A DNA stretch of 64,000 bases from an uncultured delta proteobacterium (GTDB lineage Bacteria; Desulfobacterota; Desulfobacteria; Desulfobacterales; B30-G6), in contig CAWGLD010000001.1 in the NCBI GenBank assembly GCA_963823335.1, positions 800,001-864,000 on the forward strand, given 5' to 3'. Each line of letters begins with the position of its first letter. Position 1 is the stretch's first letter. Positions 2,783-26,962 of the stretch are shown here, piece after piece. The notes under the pieces are model-generated. The model was not told the origin of the DNA, searched no databases, and was given only the letters and a program-made list of their open reading frames with translations. Position numbers and translations under genes: made by a program.

Positions 2783-5077
2783 TCACCCGGCGTGCCGGGC
2801 AATGGCATCTGCAATCACGGCCTGCCCCAGGGCAATGCCGCCATCGTTGGCCGGTACCCTTTCATGGGTCAACACGTGAAAGCCCCTGTCACGAAGACGT
2901 TTTGTCAGGCCCGAAAGAAGAATGGCATTTTGAAAACAGCCGCCACTTAGGGCTACCCGGGACAGACCGCTTTCCTTTCTGATAACCTGGCACAGATCCG
3001 TGAACATCGCCATGAGTGTGATATGAAACTTGCCACTGACAATCGAAAGACTGACACCTTTCTCAATATCCTTGACAACACCGCTGATGATAGGATGTGG
3101 ATCGATCTGTAGCGTGTCCTCTGATGACCATGCGTATTCGTAGAGATCGGTGGTCGACGTTTCCGCCAGCATTTCGAGCTCCATGGCGGCCTGCCCCTCG
3201 AAGGCCACCTGGCTCCGTATGCCGACCATGGCGGCAATACCATCGAAAAAACGCCCCAGACTCGATGTTCCGGGAGCGTTGACGCCTTTTTCGATCATCG
3301 CGACAATGATGTTGAGCTTGTTTTGATCCAATTTTTCCAGGAAGGGCAGACGTCGATTAAAAAGATCTTTTCCGTAGACACCGTAAAGATAACTGACGGC
3401 CATCCGCCAGGGTTCTTTTATGGCCGCTGCCCCCCCCGGCATGGGGGTGCAGGCGAGATGGGCCACTCTTTCAAACCTGTCGAGCCGGGCAATCAGAACC
3501 TCCCCCCCCCAGATGCTGCCATCGTTTCCATACCCGGTTCCATCGAAGGCGAGACCGATGACCGGTTCCTCAACATGATTTTCGGCCATACAGCTTACGA
3601 TATGAGCATGATGATGTTGAATCTCAATCCGCATCACGCGTTTCTGTTCCAAGGCATACCGGGTACTCAGATAATCCGGGTGCATGTCGTGAGCGATAAT
3701 TTCCGGTTCGATGGACAATATCCGCTTCAGATGAGCGATGGTCATTTCAAAAAATTCATAGGTGGACAGGTTTTCAAGATCGCCGATATGCTGGCTTAAA
3801 AAAGCATGCTCCTCTCTGGTAAGGCAGACCGTGTTTTTCAGCTCTGCACCACAGGCAAGAATCGGCTTCACACGGTTTTTCAAAAAAATGGGGACCGGGA
3901 CATACCCCCTGGAACGTCTTAAAAATCGCGCCTTGTCGTCCACGACCCTGAGAACCGAATCATCACTTCTAAGATAGATATCCCGATCGTGTATCAGAAA
4001 ATAGTCGGCAATATCCCGGAGACGATCAAAGGCATCTGTATTGTCGATAGCAATCGGCTCTTCACTCAGATTGCCACTGGTCATGACAAGGGCTGTAAAA
4101 TTGTCTTTCACCAGCAGATAATGAAGAGGGGTATAGGGCAGCATGACCCCCACGGTGCAATTTTTCGGAGAAACACCCCCGGCCAGGGCATACTCATTCT
4201 TTTTCTCCAGCAGTACGATGGGACGCTGCCGGGATTGCAGCAAGGTTTCCTCTTCCTGACCAACCCGTGCAAACTGTTGGATGCTCTCGATATCCCCGGA
4301 CATGACAGCCAGGGGTTTTTCTTCGCGATGTTTTCGTTGTCTCAGGGTTGCCACCGACGCTTCATTTTCTGCATCCACCACCAGGTGAAAACCACCCAGT
4401 CCTTTTACGGCCACGACATGTCCGGCCTTTAAGAGGGAAATGGTCGTTTCTATGGCATTTCCGGTTTCAACCCGTTTTTTCTCACGATCATGGAGAAGCA
4501 CCTGGGGCCCGCAGACAGGGCAGGCATTGGGCTGGGCATGAAACCGGCGGTTGAACGGATCGTCATATTCGGTCTGGCATTCCCGGCACATCCGGAAATG
4601 TCGCATGGAGGTCTTGGGGCGGTCATAGGGGATATCATCGATGATGGTATATCGCGGACCACAGTTGGTACAGTTTATAAACGGGTACCCATGTCGGCGA
4701 TCATCAGGATCGAAAAGTTCGTCTTTACAGTCTTTACAGATGGATACATCTGGTGAAATCAAGGTAAACCGCTGGGCATCTTTCCGGCTTTGGCTGATGG
4801 AAAAATCATCACAGCCCGTCGGGGCCAGGGACTCGACATCCACCTGGGTAATGTGGGCCAGGGGAGGGCTTTGGGTGGTCAGGCGTTGTAAAAAGGATTC
4901 GATGCCATCGAGAGGACCTTCCAGAGTGATGGTAACCCCGTTGGACGTATTGGCCACCTGGCCTTTCAGCTTCAGTGTCGTTGCCAGCTGATATACAAAG
5001 GGTCTGAATCCGACACCCTGAACAATTCCCTTGACGTTGAGCCTTCTTGCTTCTTTGGCCGAACGCTCCTGTTGCAT
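2783..5077 (-). CDS. hypF: Carbamoyltransferase HypF
   Basis: Acylphosphatase GIVQGVGFRPF, two Zn-finger CxxC pairs, KGLGGFHL, QHHHAH, DGTGYG, PANDGGIALGQ; start placed at MQQERS. Confidence 0.97.
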   Translation of the reverse strand: MQQERSAKEARRLNVKGIVQGVGFRPFVYQLATTLKLKGQVANTSNGVTITLEGPLDGIESFLQRLTTQSPPLAHITQVDVESLAPTGCDDFSISQSRKDAQRFTLISPDVSICKDCKDELFDPDDRRHGYPFINCTNCGPRYTIIDDIPYDRPKTSMRHFRMCRECQTEYDDPFNRRFHAQPNACPVCGPQVLLHDREKKRVETGNAIETTISLLKAGHVVAVKGLGGFHLVVDAENEASVATLRQRKHREEKPLAVMSGDIESIQQFARVGQEEETLLQSRQRPIVLLEKKNEYALAGGVSPKNCTVGVMLPYTPLHYLLVKDNFTALVMTSGNLSEEPIAIDNTDAFDRLRDIADYFLIHDRDIYLRSDDSVLRVVDDKARFLRRSRGYVPVPIFLKNRVKPILACGAELKNTVCLTREEHAFLSQHIGDLENLSTYEFFEMTIAHLKRILSIEPEIIAHDMHPDYLSTRYALEQKRVMRIEIQHHHAHIVSCMAENHVEEPVIGLAFDGTGYGNDGSIWGGEVLIARLDRFERVAHLACTPMPGGAAAIKEPWRMAVSYLYGVYGKDLFNRRLPFLEKLDQNKLNIIVAMIEKGVNAPGTSSLGRFFDGIAAMVGIRSQVAFEGQAAMELEMLAETSTTDLYEYAWSSEDTLQIDPHPIISGVVKDIEKGVSLSIVSGKFHITLMAMFTDLCQVIRKESGLSRVALSGGCFQNAILLSGLTKRLRDRGFHVLTHERVPANDGGIALGQAVIADAIARHAG

Positions 5078-5081
5078 GTTA

Positions 5082-5330
5082 TCAAGACTCGATATTTTCG
5101 TCACTGCTCTTTTCAGCAAAAGCAGCTGCTTCTTTCAATATTTTCAATGATTCCATGGCCGCCGCCTCATCGATTTTATGGAGGGCAAACCCGGCATGAA
5201 CGATCACGTAATCACCAACACCGGCATCCTCCAATAGCAGGAGACTTGTTTTTCTCTGAACACCATCCACATCGATGGTTGCCATGCCGTTGTCAATTTT
5301 GACGATTTTAGATGGGATTGCCAGACACAT
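5082..5330 (-). CDS. hypC: Hydrogenase assembly chaperone HypC/HupF
   Basis: MCLAIP N-terminus; VGDYVIVHAGFA. Confidence 0.97.
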   Translation of the reverse strand: MCLAIPSKIVKIDNGMATIDVDGVQRKTSLLLLEDAGVGDYVIVHAGFALHKIDEAAAMESLKILKEAAAFAEKSSDENIES

Positions 5331-5823
5331 ACTTTTCTTTCCTCTTCTGATAAGGCGTATCGAGTCGATTCAGTTCGGACAGAACCATGTCGATCATGGG
5401 TGCAATTTTGGCCGCTGTCACCGGCGTCAACTCGATACTGAGGGTCTCGATATCGAGGGGCTCCACACCAACGATCACGGTTTCAGGAACCTTGTCCAGC
5501 GCCTGGCACAATGTCAGGGCTTCCAGGAAATCTACCTGGTGAATTGAGTTTTTGGCCCGGATACGGGCCGGTATCTGGTCACCGGACAAGCGGTACACGT
5601 CGCCCGGGTTGCCTTTGTTACGGATGACATCCACGACAATCAACTGGTCGGCCAGTGAGATGACCCCCAGCAGGTTGACGCCTAAAACGCCGCCGTCCAC
5701 AAGCGAAACATTGTCCGGAAAGGTATATGTTTCTTCAAGTTTTTCAATGACCCGGACGCCAAAACCTTCATCCGAAAACAGAAGACAGCCGACCCCCAGA
5801 ATCATGATATGCGGTGAATTCAA
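5308..5823 (-). CDS. hyaD: HyaD/HybD-family hydrogenase maturation endopeptidase
   Basis: ILGVGCLLFSDEGFGV, VDGG, SIHQ, VGVEP motifs; directly after the large subunit. Confidence 0.93.
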   Translation of the reverse strand: MNSPHIMILGVGCLLFSDEGFGVRVIEKLEETYTFPDNVSLVDGGVLGVNLLGVISLADQLIVVDVIRNKGNPGDVYRLSGDQIPARIRAKNSIHQVDFLEALTLCQALDKVPETVIVGVEPLDIETLSIELTPVTAAKIAPMIDMVLSELNRLDTPYQKRKEKYVSGNPI

Positions 5824-6009: not shown

Positions 6010-7659
6010 TTATAATACCTTGATGTCATACACCTGGTTTGACTCAGGATCGATCACATGCACACCGCAGGCGATACAGGGGTCAAAGGAGTGTACGGTT
6101 CTCAATACTTCGAGCGGCCTTGCCGGGTCTGCTATGGGTGTTCCAATGAGCGCTTCCTCAATTGGTCCCAATTTGCCTTTTTCGTCTCGAGGTCCAAGGT
6201 TCCATGTGGACGGCACGACGTACTGATAGTTCTTGATTTTCTTGTCTTCGATCTCAATCCAGTGTCCCAGGGATCCCCTGGGAACATCGTTGAGCCCGAC
6301 GCCGCGACCGGAATTCGGCATTTCCCACGGCTGGTAGGTCTTGGTGTCACCCGCTTTCAGGTTTTCCACCAGTTCCATGACCCAGCCCGGCATGGCCTGG
6401 CCGATGGCGACCGTCTCAAGACCTCTGGCCGCCGTTCTACCCAGGGTGGAAAAAAGGGCCTGGACCGGGACACCCAGTTTCTGCAGGGTGCTGTCCACGA
6501 GGGCCTGGATCTCCTTTTTGCCGGCGCCATAGGCCACAAGAACCCTTGCCAGAGGACCGACTTCACAGGGTTCCCCTTCATACCTGGGGGCCTTGAACCA
6601 GGAGTACTTGCCACCACCGGGTCGATATTGCGGATCTTCCTGCAAGGGCTTTGTTTCACCCGAATAGGGATGCAGAGGCGCCCCCTCTTCGTACCACGCC
6701 CGTGCAACATGCTCGGTCACCTTGTCCTGAGATGCCATCGTCATACCACCCAGATTACGATTCATGATGACACCCCTGGGCATGAACAGGCTTTGCGGCT
6801 CGTCGTCACCCATAGGAAACTCACCCCAGGCCATGAAGTTTTTACAGCCACCAATGGCCCCCCAGTCCTTGTAAAAAGATGCCACAGCCAGCAGATCCGG
6901 GATATAGACATTCTCGATAAAGGACTGCGTTTCCTTGGTGATATACAGAAATTCCGCTATGCGGTCAGGCGTCAGGTCTTTGACAGAGGTTACGCCACCC
7001 ACCACGAGGGACTGCAGATGGGGATTCTTGGCGCCGAAAATGGCGTGCATCCTGGCCGCTTTGGCCTGGAGCCGCAAGGCTTCGATATAATGCGCCGCCG
7101 CCATCAGGTTGGCTTCCGGCGGCAGAACATACGCTGGATGACCCCAGTACGCATTGGTGAACGGTCCCAGCTGACCGCTGTCGACAAATGTCTGCAGCCG
7201 CTGCTGAACATTTCTGAAGTAATTGGCCCCGCCCCAGGGGGCGTTGCTGACATTGTCGGATAGCGTTGCAGTGGCTTTTGGATCGGCTTTCAAGGCCGAT
7301 ACGATGTCGACCCAGTCCAGTGCATGCAGATGATAGAAGTGCACAATGTGATCGTGCTGGAATTGTGCGCCATGCAGCAGGTTTCTGATAAGTCGTGCAT
7401 TTTTCGGTATCTTTACGCCAACGGCGTCTTCGACTGCCCTCACCGAGGACAAGGCATGTGTGTACGTTCAGACCCCGCACGAACGTTGAACAAAATGGTG
7501 AGCATCCCTTGGGTCCCGTCCCTGGAGAATCAATTCGATGCCCCTGAACATCTGGCCGGAGCTCCAGGCGTTTACGACCTTACCACCTTCAACCTCAACC
7601 TCGATACGAAGGTGGCCTTCTATTCTTGTAATCGGATCTATCGTTATTCTCTTGCCCAT
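6010..7659 (-). CDS. hynA: Periplasmic [NiFe]-hydrogenase large subunit (group 1b-like), 549 aa if in-frame TGA 7468-7470 is read through (putative Sec64)
   Basis: ORFs 7468..7659 and 6010..7452 share one frame, giving DPITRIEGH...QRSCGV(TGA)TYTHALSS; C-terminal DPCIACGVH plus 15-aa cleavable tail; GGAGG RBS before the ATG. Symbol follows the D. vulgaris convention (hynA = large). Confidence 0.9.
7435..7451 (-). promoter_or_regulatory. Candidate bacterial SECIS hairpin
   Basis: 16 nt after the TGA: UGUCCUC-GGU-GAGGGCA, a 7-bp stem (one G-U) with a G-starting GGU loop 23 nt from the UGA. Confidence 0.6.
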
Positions 7660-7710
7660 ATGTTTCCTCCCTCTCTCTTAAAAAGGATAATTTGCATCAT
7701 TCGTGTTCAA

Positions 7711-8655
7711 TTACATTTCCTCATAAAACGGGCTCATGGTATCCCAGAAATCCGGTTCACTGCATCCGATGCAGGGATGACCGGCTTCGATGGGCCAGCT
7801 CGTACCATCGTTGAATTTGACAATGGGACAGTTGTTGTAGGTCTCGGGTCCTCTGCAGCCAAGTTTGTAAAGACAGTAACCCAGGGCCGCCTCTTCGGAT
7901 CCGAACTCTTCAACAAACTCATCATTTTCAAAATGAGATCTTCTGGGGCATTGATCATGAATGGTCTTTCCATAGGCAAAGAGGGGCCGGCCAAGATCGT
8001 CCAGCGCAGGAAGCTTGCCCAGCAGGAGATAATTCACAACCGTTCCAACAAAATTAATCGGGTTGGGTGGACATCCGGGAATATTCAGGGTTTTTATTCC
8101 AAGGGCAGCTCCGACACCTTTGTATCCACCAGGATTTGGTTTGGCTGCCTGAACACCGCCATAGGCGGCGCAGGTTCCCAGGGCTATAGTAGCGGCAGCC
8201 TTGGGTACGATGTCCTTGGCAATTTCCAGAAACGTCCTTCCGGCCACTTTTCCATAACCACCATTGAACTTGGTTGCGACCCCGCCTTCAACCACGCAGA
8301 TGAATTTCCCCTCATACTTCTTCACAGCAGCATGGAGTGCCTCCTCAGCCTGGTGCCCGGCTGCGGCCATGATGGTCTCGTGATATTCAACCGAAAGCAC
8401 TTCGAGAACAAGTTCATCGATAAACGGATAGATGGAACGCAAGATGGCTTCAGAACATCCCGTACATTCTGCGAAATGAAGCCACACCACAGGCGGTCTC
8501 TGGGAGGGCGCAGCAAAGACATCCGCAACCCTGGGAACGAAAGATGAAGAAAGTCCCATGCTCGCAGTCAGGAATGTACAGTACTTCATAAAGTCTCTTC
8601 GTGAGACCCCCTTTTTCTCCAGTCTTTCGTAAAACTCTCTCTTTTCCTTGTCCAT
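7711..8655 (-). CDS. hynB: Periplasmic [NiFe]-hydrogenase small subunit with Tat signal
   Basis: SRRDFMK twin-arginine motif; ECTGCSE proximal, HDQC...CLYKLGC distal, NNCP...[13 protein letters not shown] medial (Pro, i.e. 3Fe-4S type); no C-terminal TM helix; AGGAGG RBS before MDKE. Confidence 0.96.
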
Positions 8656-8737
8656 TGGCACCTCCTGATGCTGTTGATGTTAATTATTTTGAGACGTTCT
8701 TCGGGAAGTCTGATTTATTCCGGCAGGTATCCGTGGG

Positions 8738-9862: not shown

Positions 9863-9948
9863 GGAGGGATGGCCGAGTGGTTGAAGGCGGCGGTCTTGAA
9901 AACCGTTGAGCGAAAGCTCCGTGGGTTCGAATCCTACTCCCTCCGCCA
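9863..9948 (+). tRNA. tRNA-Ser (anticodon TGA)
   Basis: GGAGGGA/TCCCTCC acceptor, G73, encoded CCA, anticodon arm gcggt-ctTGAaa-accgt, long variable arm, GGTTCGAATCC. Confidence 0.97.
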
Positions 9949-10175: not shown

Positions 10176-10269
10176 GGAGAGATGGCCGAGCCGGCTGAAG
10201 GCGCTCGCCTGCTAAGCGAGTGTGGGGGGAAACTTGCCACCGAGGGTTCGAATCCCTCTCTCTCCGCCA
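10176..10269 (+). tRNA. tRNA-Ser (anticodon GCT), integration site
   Basis: GGAGAGA/TCTCTCC acceptor, ctcgc-ctGCTaa-gcgag anticodon arm, long variable arm, GGTTCGAATCC, CCA. Confidence 0.97.
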
Positions 10270-24625: not shown

Positions 24626-26962
24626 TTAAAAGCCCTTGAACGGGTTCGGGCCAAGATCTTGGATCAACTCTGCAAAATCATTCACGATCTGTGGTAACTT
24701 GTCGTATTCATCGATGGCTATCTGGAACTGCGCGACACGTTCATTCTCCAGAGCCAGACTCGACAGAGCTTCACCGATCTTCTTCATGCGGACTTCCGCC
24801 AGTTCGCTTCCCTTGACAAAATGGCACTGATAATCATCACCATGTTTGCACCCGAGCAGGAAAACACCGTCCATACCCTGTGACAGGGCATCTTTGATCC
24901 AGATAACATTTACAGACCCCAAACAGCGAACCGGGATAAATCGAACTTCTGCGGAATAGGGCATCCTGTTGAGCCCGACGATATCCAGGGCCGGGTAGGC
25001 ATCGTTTTCACAGACAAGCCCCAATATACGCATGGGGGGTTCGTCGTAATCATCTTCGGATGGCACCTGAATGGATTTGACCATGGAGCCGACACTGTCG
25101 ATGTTGTAATCGGCAAAACCGATGATCCGCTCCGGACAGGCTCCCATGCAGGTACCACAGCGCCGGCAACGGGTCGGGTTCGGTTTGGGGGTTCCCTTTT
25201 CATCATCATCCAGGGCGCCAAAAGGACACTCCTCGGTACAGCGCTTGCACTGGGTGCAACGCTGAAAGAAAAAATCCGGAAAGGTCATGTCCCCCGATCT
25301 CGGATGAACGGAAACACCCCTGTTGGCCGAATCAATGCACTGAATCGCCTTTAAGGCCGCTCCCGAAGCATCTTCAATTGACTCTTCCACGGTGAGCGCA
25401 CGCCGTATGCCACCGGCCGCATAAATACCCGTCCGCTGGGTCTCATACGGGAAACAAATAAAGTTGGAATCCGCATAGGCCTGGAATAAGGCATTGTCCC
25501 TGAACCCCGGTCCCTGGCGATATGCTAGATTGACCACCGGGTCGTCTTTGGTTACCGGTACCATACCGGTGCCGAGTACGACCATGTCTGCCTTGACCTG
25601 TACTTTTTTCCCCAGGAGGGTATTTTCGGCCTCGACAATCAGGCCGTCGCCGTTTTTAGAAACCTTCGTCACCTCTCCCTTTGTCATGAAAATACCCGGA
25701 TCCTGCTGCAGGCTCTTGTAGAAATTCTCGCTCAGACCAGGCGTGCGCATGTGCTGATAAAAAAGAAACGCTTTTCCTTCGGGAAAATCTTCCCGGACGT
25801 ATTTGGCTTGCTTGAGCGCCACCAGGCTTGTGACCGATCCTGCATATTCGAAATCGCTGTCATCGTCGCCGGCCCCCGGACTCTGGACAAAAACCACCGA
25901 CGAGGCTTCCTTGCCATCCGAAGGTCTGACGATTTTACCCTTTTTGGCAATCTCTTCAAACTCGGTGTTGGTCACGACATCCGGCAGTTCTCCATACCCC
26001 AGGTGGGAAAACTCACCCGCCTTGGGTTTATAGGGCCGCCAGCCAGCTGCCAGGATTACGGCACCAAAAGCTTCCCCGTTTGGATCGAACTTGAGGATAT
26101 CGTTCTTGCCCACATTGTACTCCATGAATTTTTCATGCAGCTGCTCAGCATTCAGCTCCTTACCGCTGTCATCCACTTTCATCTCGTCCGGAAGCGGATA
26201 GGGAACATCGAATTCCATTTTTTCACCCGGCTTTTTCAAGGTGACGATAAAATTTCCCGGCTCTCCGGCAATTCGGGCAGCCACTGTCTCCGTCTTAACG
26301 GTGATGTTCGACATGGACGCCACTTCCTGTATCATCTGCGCCACAACCGGCGGGATCAACTGTTCGTATGGGCTTTTCAGCGGCAGTTGTTTACGCCAGT
26401 TATTGGCGTTGCCCCCCAATATTCCTTGTTTTTCGACAATGGTGACCTCGTATCCGGTCTTGGCCGCATCGAGAGCCGCCGACATGCCGGTGACACCCCC
26501 CCCGATCACCAGGATTTTACGACTGAAATTGTCCAGCTTGTAGGGCTCCGGCAGGTTGATTTTTTCAACTTTCGCCATCCCCATGCGGATGTAGTCCTGG
26601 GCCAGCATCTCCAGACGGTCGAAGTGCTCTTCGTCTCCTTTTTGATCTTCGGTCAATGCCGGGAATTCGGAACGGGGATGAGACCAGACCACCTGTTCCC
26701 GTAAATTCACACGGTCCACAATACAGCCGTCAAATCGGAACACGTCAAAATTAACCCGCCGCGAACATGCTGCGATAACGAGCGTATTGGTACCTTCCTC
26801 GATATCCTTCTTGAGAAGGGCAACACCGTCTTTGCCGCAAAGGATGGGGTGCGTTTTTACCGGAACGCCCTCTTCCTCTGGGATTTCACACAGTGCTTTC
26901 ATGTCCAGGGCATCACCGATGCCACAGCCTTCACATATATACACACCATACTTTTTATCCAT
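24626..26962 (-). CDS. qmoB: QmoB (HdrA-like plus MvhD domain)
   Basis: GGGVTG FAD motif, two ferredoxin CxxCxxCxxxC, CENDAYPA...RCLGS...GCKHG..YQCHF. Confidence 0.96.
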   Translation of the reverse strand: MDKKYGVYICEGCGIGDALDMKALCEIPEEEGVPVKTHPILCGKDGVALLKKDIEEGTNTLVIAACSRRVNFDVFRFDGCIVDRVNLREQVVWSHPRSEFPALTEDQKGDEEHFDRLEMLAQDYIRMGMAKVEKINLPEPYKLDNFSRKILVIGGGVTGMSAALDAAKTGYEVTIVEKQGILGGNANNWRKQLPLKSPYEQLIPPVVAQMIQEVASMSNITVKTETVAARIAGEPGNFIVTLKKPGEKMEFDVPYPLPDEMKVDDSGKELNAEQLHEKFMEYNVGKNDILKFDPNGEAFGAVILAAGWRPYKPKAGEFSHLGYGELPDVVTNTEFEEIAKKGKIVRPSDGKEASSVVFVQSPGAGDDDSDFEYAGSVTSLVALKQAKYVREDFPEGKAFLFYQHMRTPGLSENFYKSLQQDPGIFMTKGEVTKVSKNGDGLIVEAENTLLGKKVQVKADMVVLGTGMVPVTKDDPVVNLAYRQGPGFRDNALFQAYADSNFICFPYETQRTGIYAAGGIRRALTVEESIEDASGAALKAIQCIDSANRGVSVHPRSGDMTFPDFFFQRCTQCKRCTEECPFGALDDDEKGTPKPNPTRCRRCGTCMGACPERIIGFADYNIDSVGSMVKSIQVPSEDDYDEPPMRILGLVCENDAYPALDIVGLNRMPYSAEVRFIPVRCLGSVNVIWIKDALSQGMDGVFLLGCKHGDDYQCHFVKGSELAEVRMKKIGEALSSLALENERVAQFQIAIDEYDKLPQIVNDFAELIQDLGPNPFKGF

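Follow-up and report, generated by a model that had tools for sequence, protein, structure and literature searches.

A [NiFe] hydrogenase large-subunit gene of Desulfobacterales with a putative selenocysteine codon at the Ni-Fe-bridging position

Introduction

Classical [NiFeSe] hydrogenases carry selenocysteine (Sec) in first position of the C-terminal motif (DPUxxC), where it serves as a terminal ligand. To our knowledge, all structural and mechanistic work on natural selenium hydrogenases has been on Sec as a terminal Ni ligand, and the only data so far on selenium at the bridging position come from an engineered variant of an E. coli enzyme.

In the N-terminal motif, it is the residue in second position that bridges Ni and Fe (PMC13582414), and natural sequences with Sec at the second position of a CxxC-type motif (CxxU) have been noted before. 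As described in the available parts of PMC13582414, Baltazar 2011 had reported an N-terminal CXXU motif in two sequences of Group 1 and one of Group 3, with bridging of Ni and Fe as the prediction. For Deltaproteobacteria living as worm symbionts, a 2007 paper reported a hydrogenase large subunit with a new CxxU motif, although the portion of the text available does not specify which motif is meant (PMC1976440). In the part of a 2021 paper accessible to us, "purported examples" of a substituted bridging Cys are mentioned and an engineered E. coli Hyd-1 C79U is described (PMC8020662). Its H2 oxidation was 13% of native, its KM for H2 was lower, and almost no activity was left at 10% O2. Because C79U was active at 13%, a selenium ligand at the bridging position is compatible with catalysis. 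An in silico study from 2026 surveyed Group 4 hydrogenases, with Groups 1-3 excluded, and reported CXXU, UXXC, and UXXU forms; its supplementary tables are confined to Group 4 according to its methods, and the sections available describe UXXU for Group 4 only (PMC13582414). A 2026 review of the selenoproteome lists hydrogenase large subunits with UxxC only in the part of it that we could consult (PMC13188914).

Here we describe a hydrogenase large-subunit gene that is a further case of the CxxU hydrogenases earlier noted from sequences, and we report that such genes are widespread and mis-annotated. A first-pass annotation of this DNA had proposed a new type of selenium hydrogenase. This cannot be maintained, since CxxU appeared earlier in Baltazar 2011 (known to us via PMC13582414) and PMC1976440, and C79U in PMC8020662, as far as the accessible portions of these sources go. 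The same annotation stated that a natural bridging-Sec enzyme had not been described biochemically; in agreement with this, a limited literature search turned up no biochemical work on a natural hydrogenase with CxxU.

The hydrogenase gene and its neighbors

We analyzed a stretch of DNA 64,000 nucleotides long, called here the window. On its minus strand, positions 6010-7659 are predicted to encode a [NiFe] hydrogenase large subunit of 549 codons (PF00374, 732 bits). An AG-rich stretch resembling a ribosome-binding site lies upstream of the ATG at 7659. When translated, this region gave one 549-residue frame in which the sole internal stop is a TGA at 7468-7470. The TGA corresponds to residue 64, which is the second of the two ligands in the N-terminal motif R-S-C-G-V-U (7468-7485, minus strand). 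The C-terminal Ni-Fe motif, DPCIACGVH (residues 526-534; 6058-6084, minus strand), is all-Cys and is followed by a 15-residue extension (6013-6057, minus strand) that is presumably cut off by a protease. From the behavior of the family, we infer that cleavage would occur after the His of DPCIACGVH. The translation thus agrees with the first-pass annotation, which had reported one frame interrupted only by this TGA and an all-Cys C-terminal motif.

Upstream of the large-subunit gene is a gene for the small subunit (7711-8661; TIGR00391, 422 bits), which is predicted to encode a protein of 316 residues with a twin-arginine (TAT) signal (23.1 bits, cut-off 16.7). Directly 3' of the large-subunit gene, with no third structural gene (cytochrome b) between the two, is a gene for a maturation endopeptidase of the HyaD/HybD family (5308-5823; TIGR00140, 158.7 bits, cut-off 151.8). 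This is followed by hypC (5082-5330; TIGR00074, 80.6 bits), hypF (2783-5119 as listed for the open reading frame, with the true start possibly further downstream; TIGR00143, 852 bits), hypD (1409-2497; TIGR00075, 467 bits), and hypE (160-1188; TIGR02124, 452 bits). All of these genes are on the minus strand. The small subunit, protease, and hypCFDE had been described as intact, which our analysis bears out. TGA is the stop codon of hypD, hypF, and hypC, and it ends 11 of the 35 long frames of the window.

The best solved relatives of the two subunits were 1h2a_L for the large subunit (E = 2.9e-214) and 1h2a_S for the small subunit (E = 4.2e-123). We take 1h2a and 1h2r to be the periplasmic [NiFe] hydrogenase of Desulfovibrio vulgaris Miyazaki F. 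Both ligand motifs align with this enzyme without gaps; the ligands C61, U64, C528, and C531 correspond to Cys81, Cys84, Cys546, and Cys549 of 1h2a_L. In the printed alignment with 1h2a_S, the Cys motifs of the small subunit, including GCPPNP, appear conserved. The present gene differs in having a UGA where 1h2a has a Cys, namely Cys84, which is presumably the bridging ligand. Because the protein has RxCGxC-type and DPCxxCxxH motifs, relatives of the 1h2a type, a TAT signal on its partner, and a dedicated endopeptidase, the predicted enzyme is assigned to the Desulfovibrio-type (group 1b-like) periplasmic [NiFe] hydrogenases. The alignment with Cys84, a position that bridges the two metals according to PMC13582414, also supports the earlier placement of the putative Sec at the second, Ni-Fe-bridging Cys of the N-terminal motif.

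The genome contains a second, distant [NiFe] large-subunit gene (G000:C2:48655-50157; L102, L103). This is a 504-residue open frame with no internal stop and 29-39% identity.

Comparison with classical [NiFeSe] hydrogenases

Like the HysAB enzymes (Desulfomicrobium baculatum 1cc1 and D. vulgaris 2wpn), the predicted enzyme would be a periplasmic Group 1 hydrogenase with one Sec ligand on Ni. Unlike HysAB, where Sec is C-terminal and a terminal ligand, it would have its Sec in the N-terminal motif. We rejected a classical [NiFeSe] (HysAB) identity because the C-terminal motif is DPCIAC instead of DPUxxC. Cys was at the first position of this motif in 81 of 81 sequences examined. The window protein scored below the cut-offs of the curated NCBIfam models NF045518 (429.6 versus 780), NF033181 (595.7 versus 600), and NF045520 (265.5 versus 470), and solved HysA-type chains matched residues 158-547 of the large subunit only. 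NF033181, named "NiFeSe_hydrog", was rejected as a family model, since its high scorers are classical C-terminal-Sec enzymes and the window protein is below its cut-off. When high scorers of NF033181 in related genomes were inspected, 11 of 12 loci had a C-terminal Sec and one was without Sec.

Classical C-terminal-Sec large subunits (DPU-LGC) are found in other Desulfobacterales genomes (L128-L138). Three genomes (G030, G044, and G063) contain a classical C-terminal-Sec gene together with an all-Cys Hyn-type gene.

TGA and Cys codons among relatives

We examined the codon for residue 64 in the best 80 of approximately 590 confirmed relatives. These are from species-representative genomes, one species each, that are Desulfobacterales-like, with 74-97% identity. 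The codon was TGA in 56 of the 80 and TGC or TGT in the other 24. Desulfosarcina cetonica (L052), the one isolate in this set, belongs to the Cys group. This distribution puts the TGA beyond chance. We also used a class-wide sample of 401 genomes, 241 of which had a large-subunit match at E ≤ 1e-100. A hand count of the 150 matches listed gave 77 with one TGA, 72 with none, and one with a TAA, and a further 110 matches lie beyond these. In this class-wide count the codon position was confirmed for the three TGA matches of lowest identity, all of which have the TGA at the same codon and the same downstream hairpin (see below); the L112 protein among these matches is the same as that of L100.

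An in-frame stop in a catalytic motif resembles a nonsense mutation, leading us to consider a pseudogene, or an error of assembly or sequencing at the TGA. In one TGA-bearing relative, L094, another in-frame stop does occur at a different place in the gene, replacing the Trp of NAYWGH; this copy may be decaying, or its assembly may be in error. For the gene in the window, decay or error is scarcely credible, because the 56 species genomes with TGA at this codon were assembled independently, the variation among relatives is mostly synonymous in both halves of the gene, and the maturation genes are intact. Also, the TGA site is covered by a contig from DNA (X1, record 7) that shows one difference over 1051 nt, although X1 may be the source sample. 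Contigs from RNA libraries, X10 (7156-8112) and X13 (7346-7791), bridge the TGA, and no difference at 7468-7470 is among the differences listed for them, with 139 differences beyond those listed. Such libraries can contain DNA, and contigs are no proof of transcription. The contig data neither strengthen nor weaken the DNA evidence for the TGA.

Five Group 1 loci among the 56 have TGA at both N-terminal ligands (R-T/V-U-G-V-U, or UxxU). The motif is at approximately 3175-3192 in L082, L083, L097, and L098, and at approximately 1532-1549 in L093. These loci carry the same single downstream hairpin, which would therefore serve two UGAs 9 nt apart.

Two positions close to the TGA also differed between the groups. 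Codon 65 (within 7459-7467) was ACG in 35 of 57 TGA genes versus 1 of 24 Cys genes. Residue 67 was Val in 1 of 60 TGA genes versus 20 of 33 Cys genes. The raw counts for Val67 are suggestive, but we rejected an association with the Cys state because an independent-pairs test, which takes phylogeny into account, gave a non-significant median p of 0.125.

A conserved hairpin downstream of the UGA

The first-pass annotation had reported a hairpin with a GGU loop 16 nt downstream of the UGA and interpreted it as a SECIS element. We found this 7-bp hairpin; the addition of an outer U.G pair extends it to 8 bp with a start 15 nt past the UGA. The putative SECIS hairpin is thus 19 nt long (7434-7452, minus strand), with an 8-bp stem and a GGU loop, and it encodes L70 to A75 plus the first base of V76. 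Its consensus, CUGUCCUCGGUGAGGGCAG, has 8-nt arms around the GGU loop, and the version in the window begins with U. The bSECISearch spacing rule calls for a stem-loop 16-37 nt after the UGA and a G in the apical loop. With a loop that begins 23 nt after the UGA and contains G, the present hairpin conforms to a rule of this kind.

The codons that form the hairpin are nearly fixed in TGA genes. Codon entropies for residues 70-75 were 0.54, 0.35, 0, 0.13, 0, and 0 bits in 57 TGA genes versus 2.75, 2.53, 1.39, 2.25, 2.10, and 1.67 bits in 24 Cys genes. The Cys genes encode mostly the same residues at these positions, and the flanking codons vary in both groups. Pairing was compared in 93 rows (92 of them different), a non-random set that includes 12 hand-picked loci. 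All eight pairs can form in 56 of the 60 TGA genes in this set and seven of the eight in the remaining four. By contrast, among the 33 Cys genes only L067 retains eight pairs and only L107 seven, while the remainder have six or fewer. The outer stem pair varies between C-G, U.G, and U-A, and an identical 19-mer is present in 48 of the 60 TGA genes. Because the hairpin is almost invariant, compensatory covariation is confined to the outer pair.

Analyses of the single sequence did not single out this hairpin. Folding of an 81-nt stretch around it gave z = -0.37, with 68 of 200 shuffles folding equally well or better. Rfam returned no match to a SECIS family across the window at gathering thresholds or on 7380-7500 at E up to 10; a gut-2 match in the latter search was dismissed as chance. 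Since the single-sequence fold is no better than shuffles, it is comparison among relatives and not folding energy that supports the hairpin. The comparative data are consistent with the interpretation as a SECIS, in that codons and pairing are conserved in TGA genes and lost in Cys genes. The hairpin therefore appears to behave as a SECIS, with a constraint at the RNA level that is confined to TGA genes. Relatives had been suggested as a check, and they have the TGA at the same position and the expected alternation of TGA and Cys; the expected covariation of the hairpin was not found beyond the outer pair.

Truncated gene predictions

It had been claimed that automated annotation would split this gene, and predicted proteins in databases support this. 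Of the best 120 matches, 105 are full-length proteins with CxxC, and 15 are 477-aa calls that start at Val73, inside the hairpin. These 15 are the matches most similar to the window, with 89-94% identity. Gene callers therefore truncate the TGA forms systematically.

The 477-aa products, called from the GTG of Val73, and a 480-aa open reading frame from a TTG in the list of open reading frames could also be taken to mean that translation ends at the UGA and begins again further downstream. This would yield a 63-residue peptide and a fragment of approximately 477-480 residues as a split large subunit. We regard such an arrangement as very improbable. The break would part two ligands of one CxxC-type motif that are three residues apart, and the candidate starts lie within the conserved hairpin. 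Relatives with Cys at this position are single polypeptides, and the AG-rich stretch precedes the ATG at 7659, this being the only start whose upstream sequence was inspected.

Selenocysteine genes in the genome

The genome contains selA (610 bits), selB (373 bits), selD (372 bits), and a tRNA-Sec (75 bits), all with scores above the curated cut-offs. Thus, all four of the genes selA, selB, selC, and selD, whose presence had been proposed as a check, are found. The selD gene itself has an in-frame TGA. It is one of six other genes from known selenoprotein families with a single in-frame TGA; the others are an FdhA-like gene and four MvhD/FlpD genes (the six are in G000 at C5:144246-145172, C1:1677449-1678192, C1:1610688-1611056, C1:952159-952527, C1:1683402-1683770, and C5:443626-443997). 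Five of the six have a short hairpin with a loop starting in GG approximately 20-23 nt downstream of the TGA; for the sixth, an MvhD/FlpD copy, the hairpin is doubtful. A fifth match to the FlpD/MvhD domain, at 24650-25027 of the window (minus strand), belongs to an open frame of 784 residues without TGA and may be part of a fusion protein. Just past the small-subunit gene, on the plus strand, there are two tRNA genes (9863-9948 and 10176-10269). We rejected these as candidates for tRNA-Sec because both are tRNA-Ser (anticodons tga and gct) and the tRNA-Sec is on another contig.

We also considered whether the presence of selA could discriminate between Sec and Cys forms. This was rejected; selA is present in 393 of the 401 sampled genomes and is therefore uninformative for this purpose. 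Two of the 77 TGA-bearing genomes, G071 and G090 (97% and 94% complete), had no selA match at E ≤ 1e-60.

The alternation of TGA and Cys (56 versus 24), the hairpin specific to TGA genes, the sel genes and the six other TGA-bearing selenoprotein-family genes of the genome, and the use of TGA as a regular stop codon in the window all favor the original reading of the TGA as a Sec codon. The TGA at 7468-7470 is very probably a selenocysteine codon. We are confident, if short of certain, that the gene encodes a selenoprotein large subunit of a periplasmic Desulfovibrio-type (group 1b-like) uptake [NiFe] hydrogenase in which the UGA at codon 64 is recoded to Sec.

Evolution of the Sec site

We built a quick maximum-likelihood tree from the 93 rows with the two motif columns masked. 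All TGA genes are inside a clade of 87 rows, and the Cys-only outgroups are outside it. Within this clade at least 18 changes between Sec and Cys are required, nine of which are forced by well-supported branches. The tree suggests that Sec was gained once in a Desulfobacterales clade, followed by many reversions to Cys. The sharing of one 19-mer by most of the TGA genes likewise points to one gain, many one-base reversions to Cys, and then decay of the hairpin.

L067 (motif at approximately 3175-3250) retains the 8-bp hairpin in full although its codon at the Sec position is TGC, and it adjoins the TGA gene L074 on the tree. This gene looks like a recent reversion from Sec to Cys.

Discussion

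We propose that SelB with Sec-tRNA(Sec) would bind the 19-nt hairpin 15 nt past the UGA and hand Sec to the ribosome. The metal center would then be inserted by HypCDEF together with further maturation proteins, the adjacent endopeptidase would trim the 15-residue C-terminal tail, and the dimer would be exported via the Tat signal of the small subunit. In the mature enzyme, the selenolate of U64 would replace the Ni-Fe-bridging thiolate and C61, C528, and C531 would remain cysteine.

Alternatively, read-through of the UGA might wholly or partly insert a residue different from Sec, such as Cys under selenium shortage, leaving the working enzyme mostly an ordinary all-Cys one. Our data are at the DNA level and are silent on the residue inserted. 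In addition, Cys at residue 64 clearly works, because Cys forms occur often and are scattered among the TGA forms in the tree. Even so, we consider insertion of a residue other than Sec improbable, given that the TGA and the SECIS-like hairpin have been kept in 56 of 80 species though a one-base change gives Cys, and that the genome has the complete Sec machinery.

With Sec as the predicted residue, the enzyme can be compared with the other hydrogenases that have selenium at this position. The Group 1 CXXU sequences of Baltazar 2011, known to us through the available parts of PMC13582414 and PMC8020662, are of the same group, with the same Sec position and the same predicted bridging. Those were two sequences, compared here by description only, whereas the present form occurs in 56 of the best 80 loci and in about half of the matches listed. 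The Group 4 CXXU enzymes, as presented in the accessible text of PMC13582414, also carry Sec in second place in the N-terminal motif, have only Cys in the C-terminal one, and have switched repeatedly between Sec and Cys; unlike the predicted periplasmic Group 1 enzyme, they are membrane-bound and energy-converting. Hyd-1 C79U is likewise a Group 1 enzyme with selenium at the equivalent second ligand of the N-terminal motif, but, according to the part of PMC8020662 available, it is an artificial variant of an O2-tolerant membrane-bound enzyme, made by UAG/EF-Tu incorporation.

On the evidence of these sequences, the predicted CxxU variant is common in sulfate-reducing Desulfobacterales. Tentatively, and with considerable doubt, we suggest that the bridging-selenolate form is not a neutral variant but a functionally distinct catalyst, and perhaps the main periplasmic hydrogenase of many Desulfobacterales. 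It would have arisen once and gone back to Cys nine times or more, possibly in step with the supply of selenium or with H2 affinity, and UxxU relatives would use one hairpin for two UGAs. If this is true, there would be natural enzymes with selenium at the bridging and terminal N-terminal positions, with chemistry unlike that of classical [NiFeSe] and [NiFe] hydrogenases.

The truncated calls imply that surveys of hydrogenases and of selenoproteins undercount the TGA forms. What selenium does at this position could be tested with a natural enzyme in which it bridges Ni and Fe. As judged from their genes, CxxU enzymes are common in sulfate reducers, and the closely related Cys forms could act as controls.
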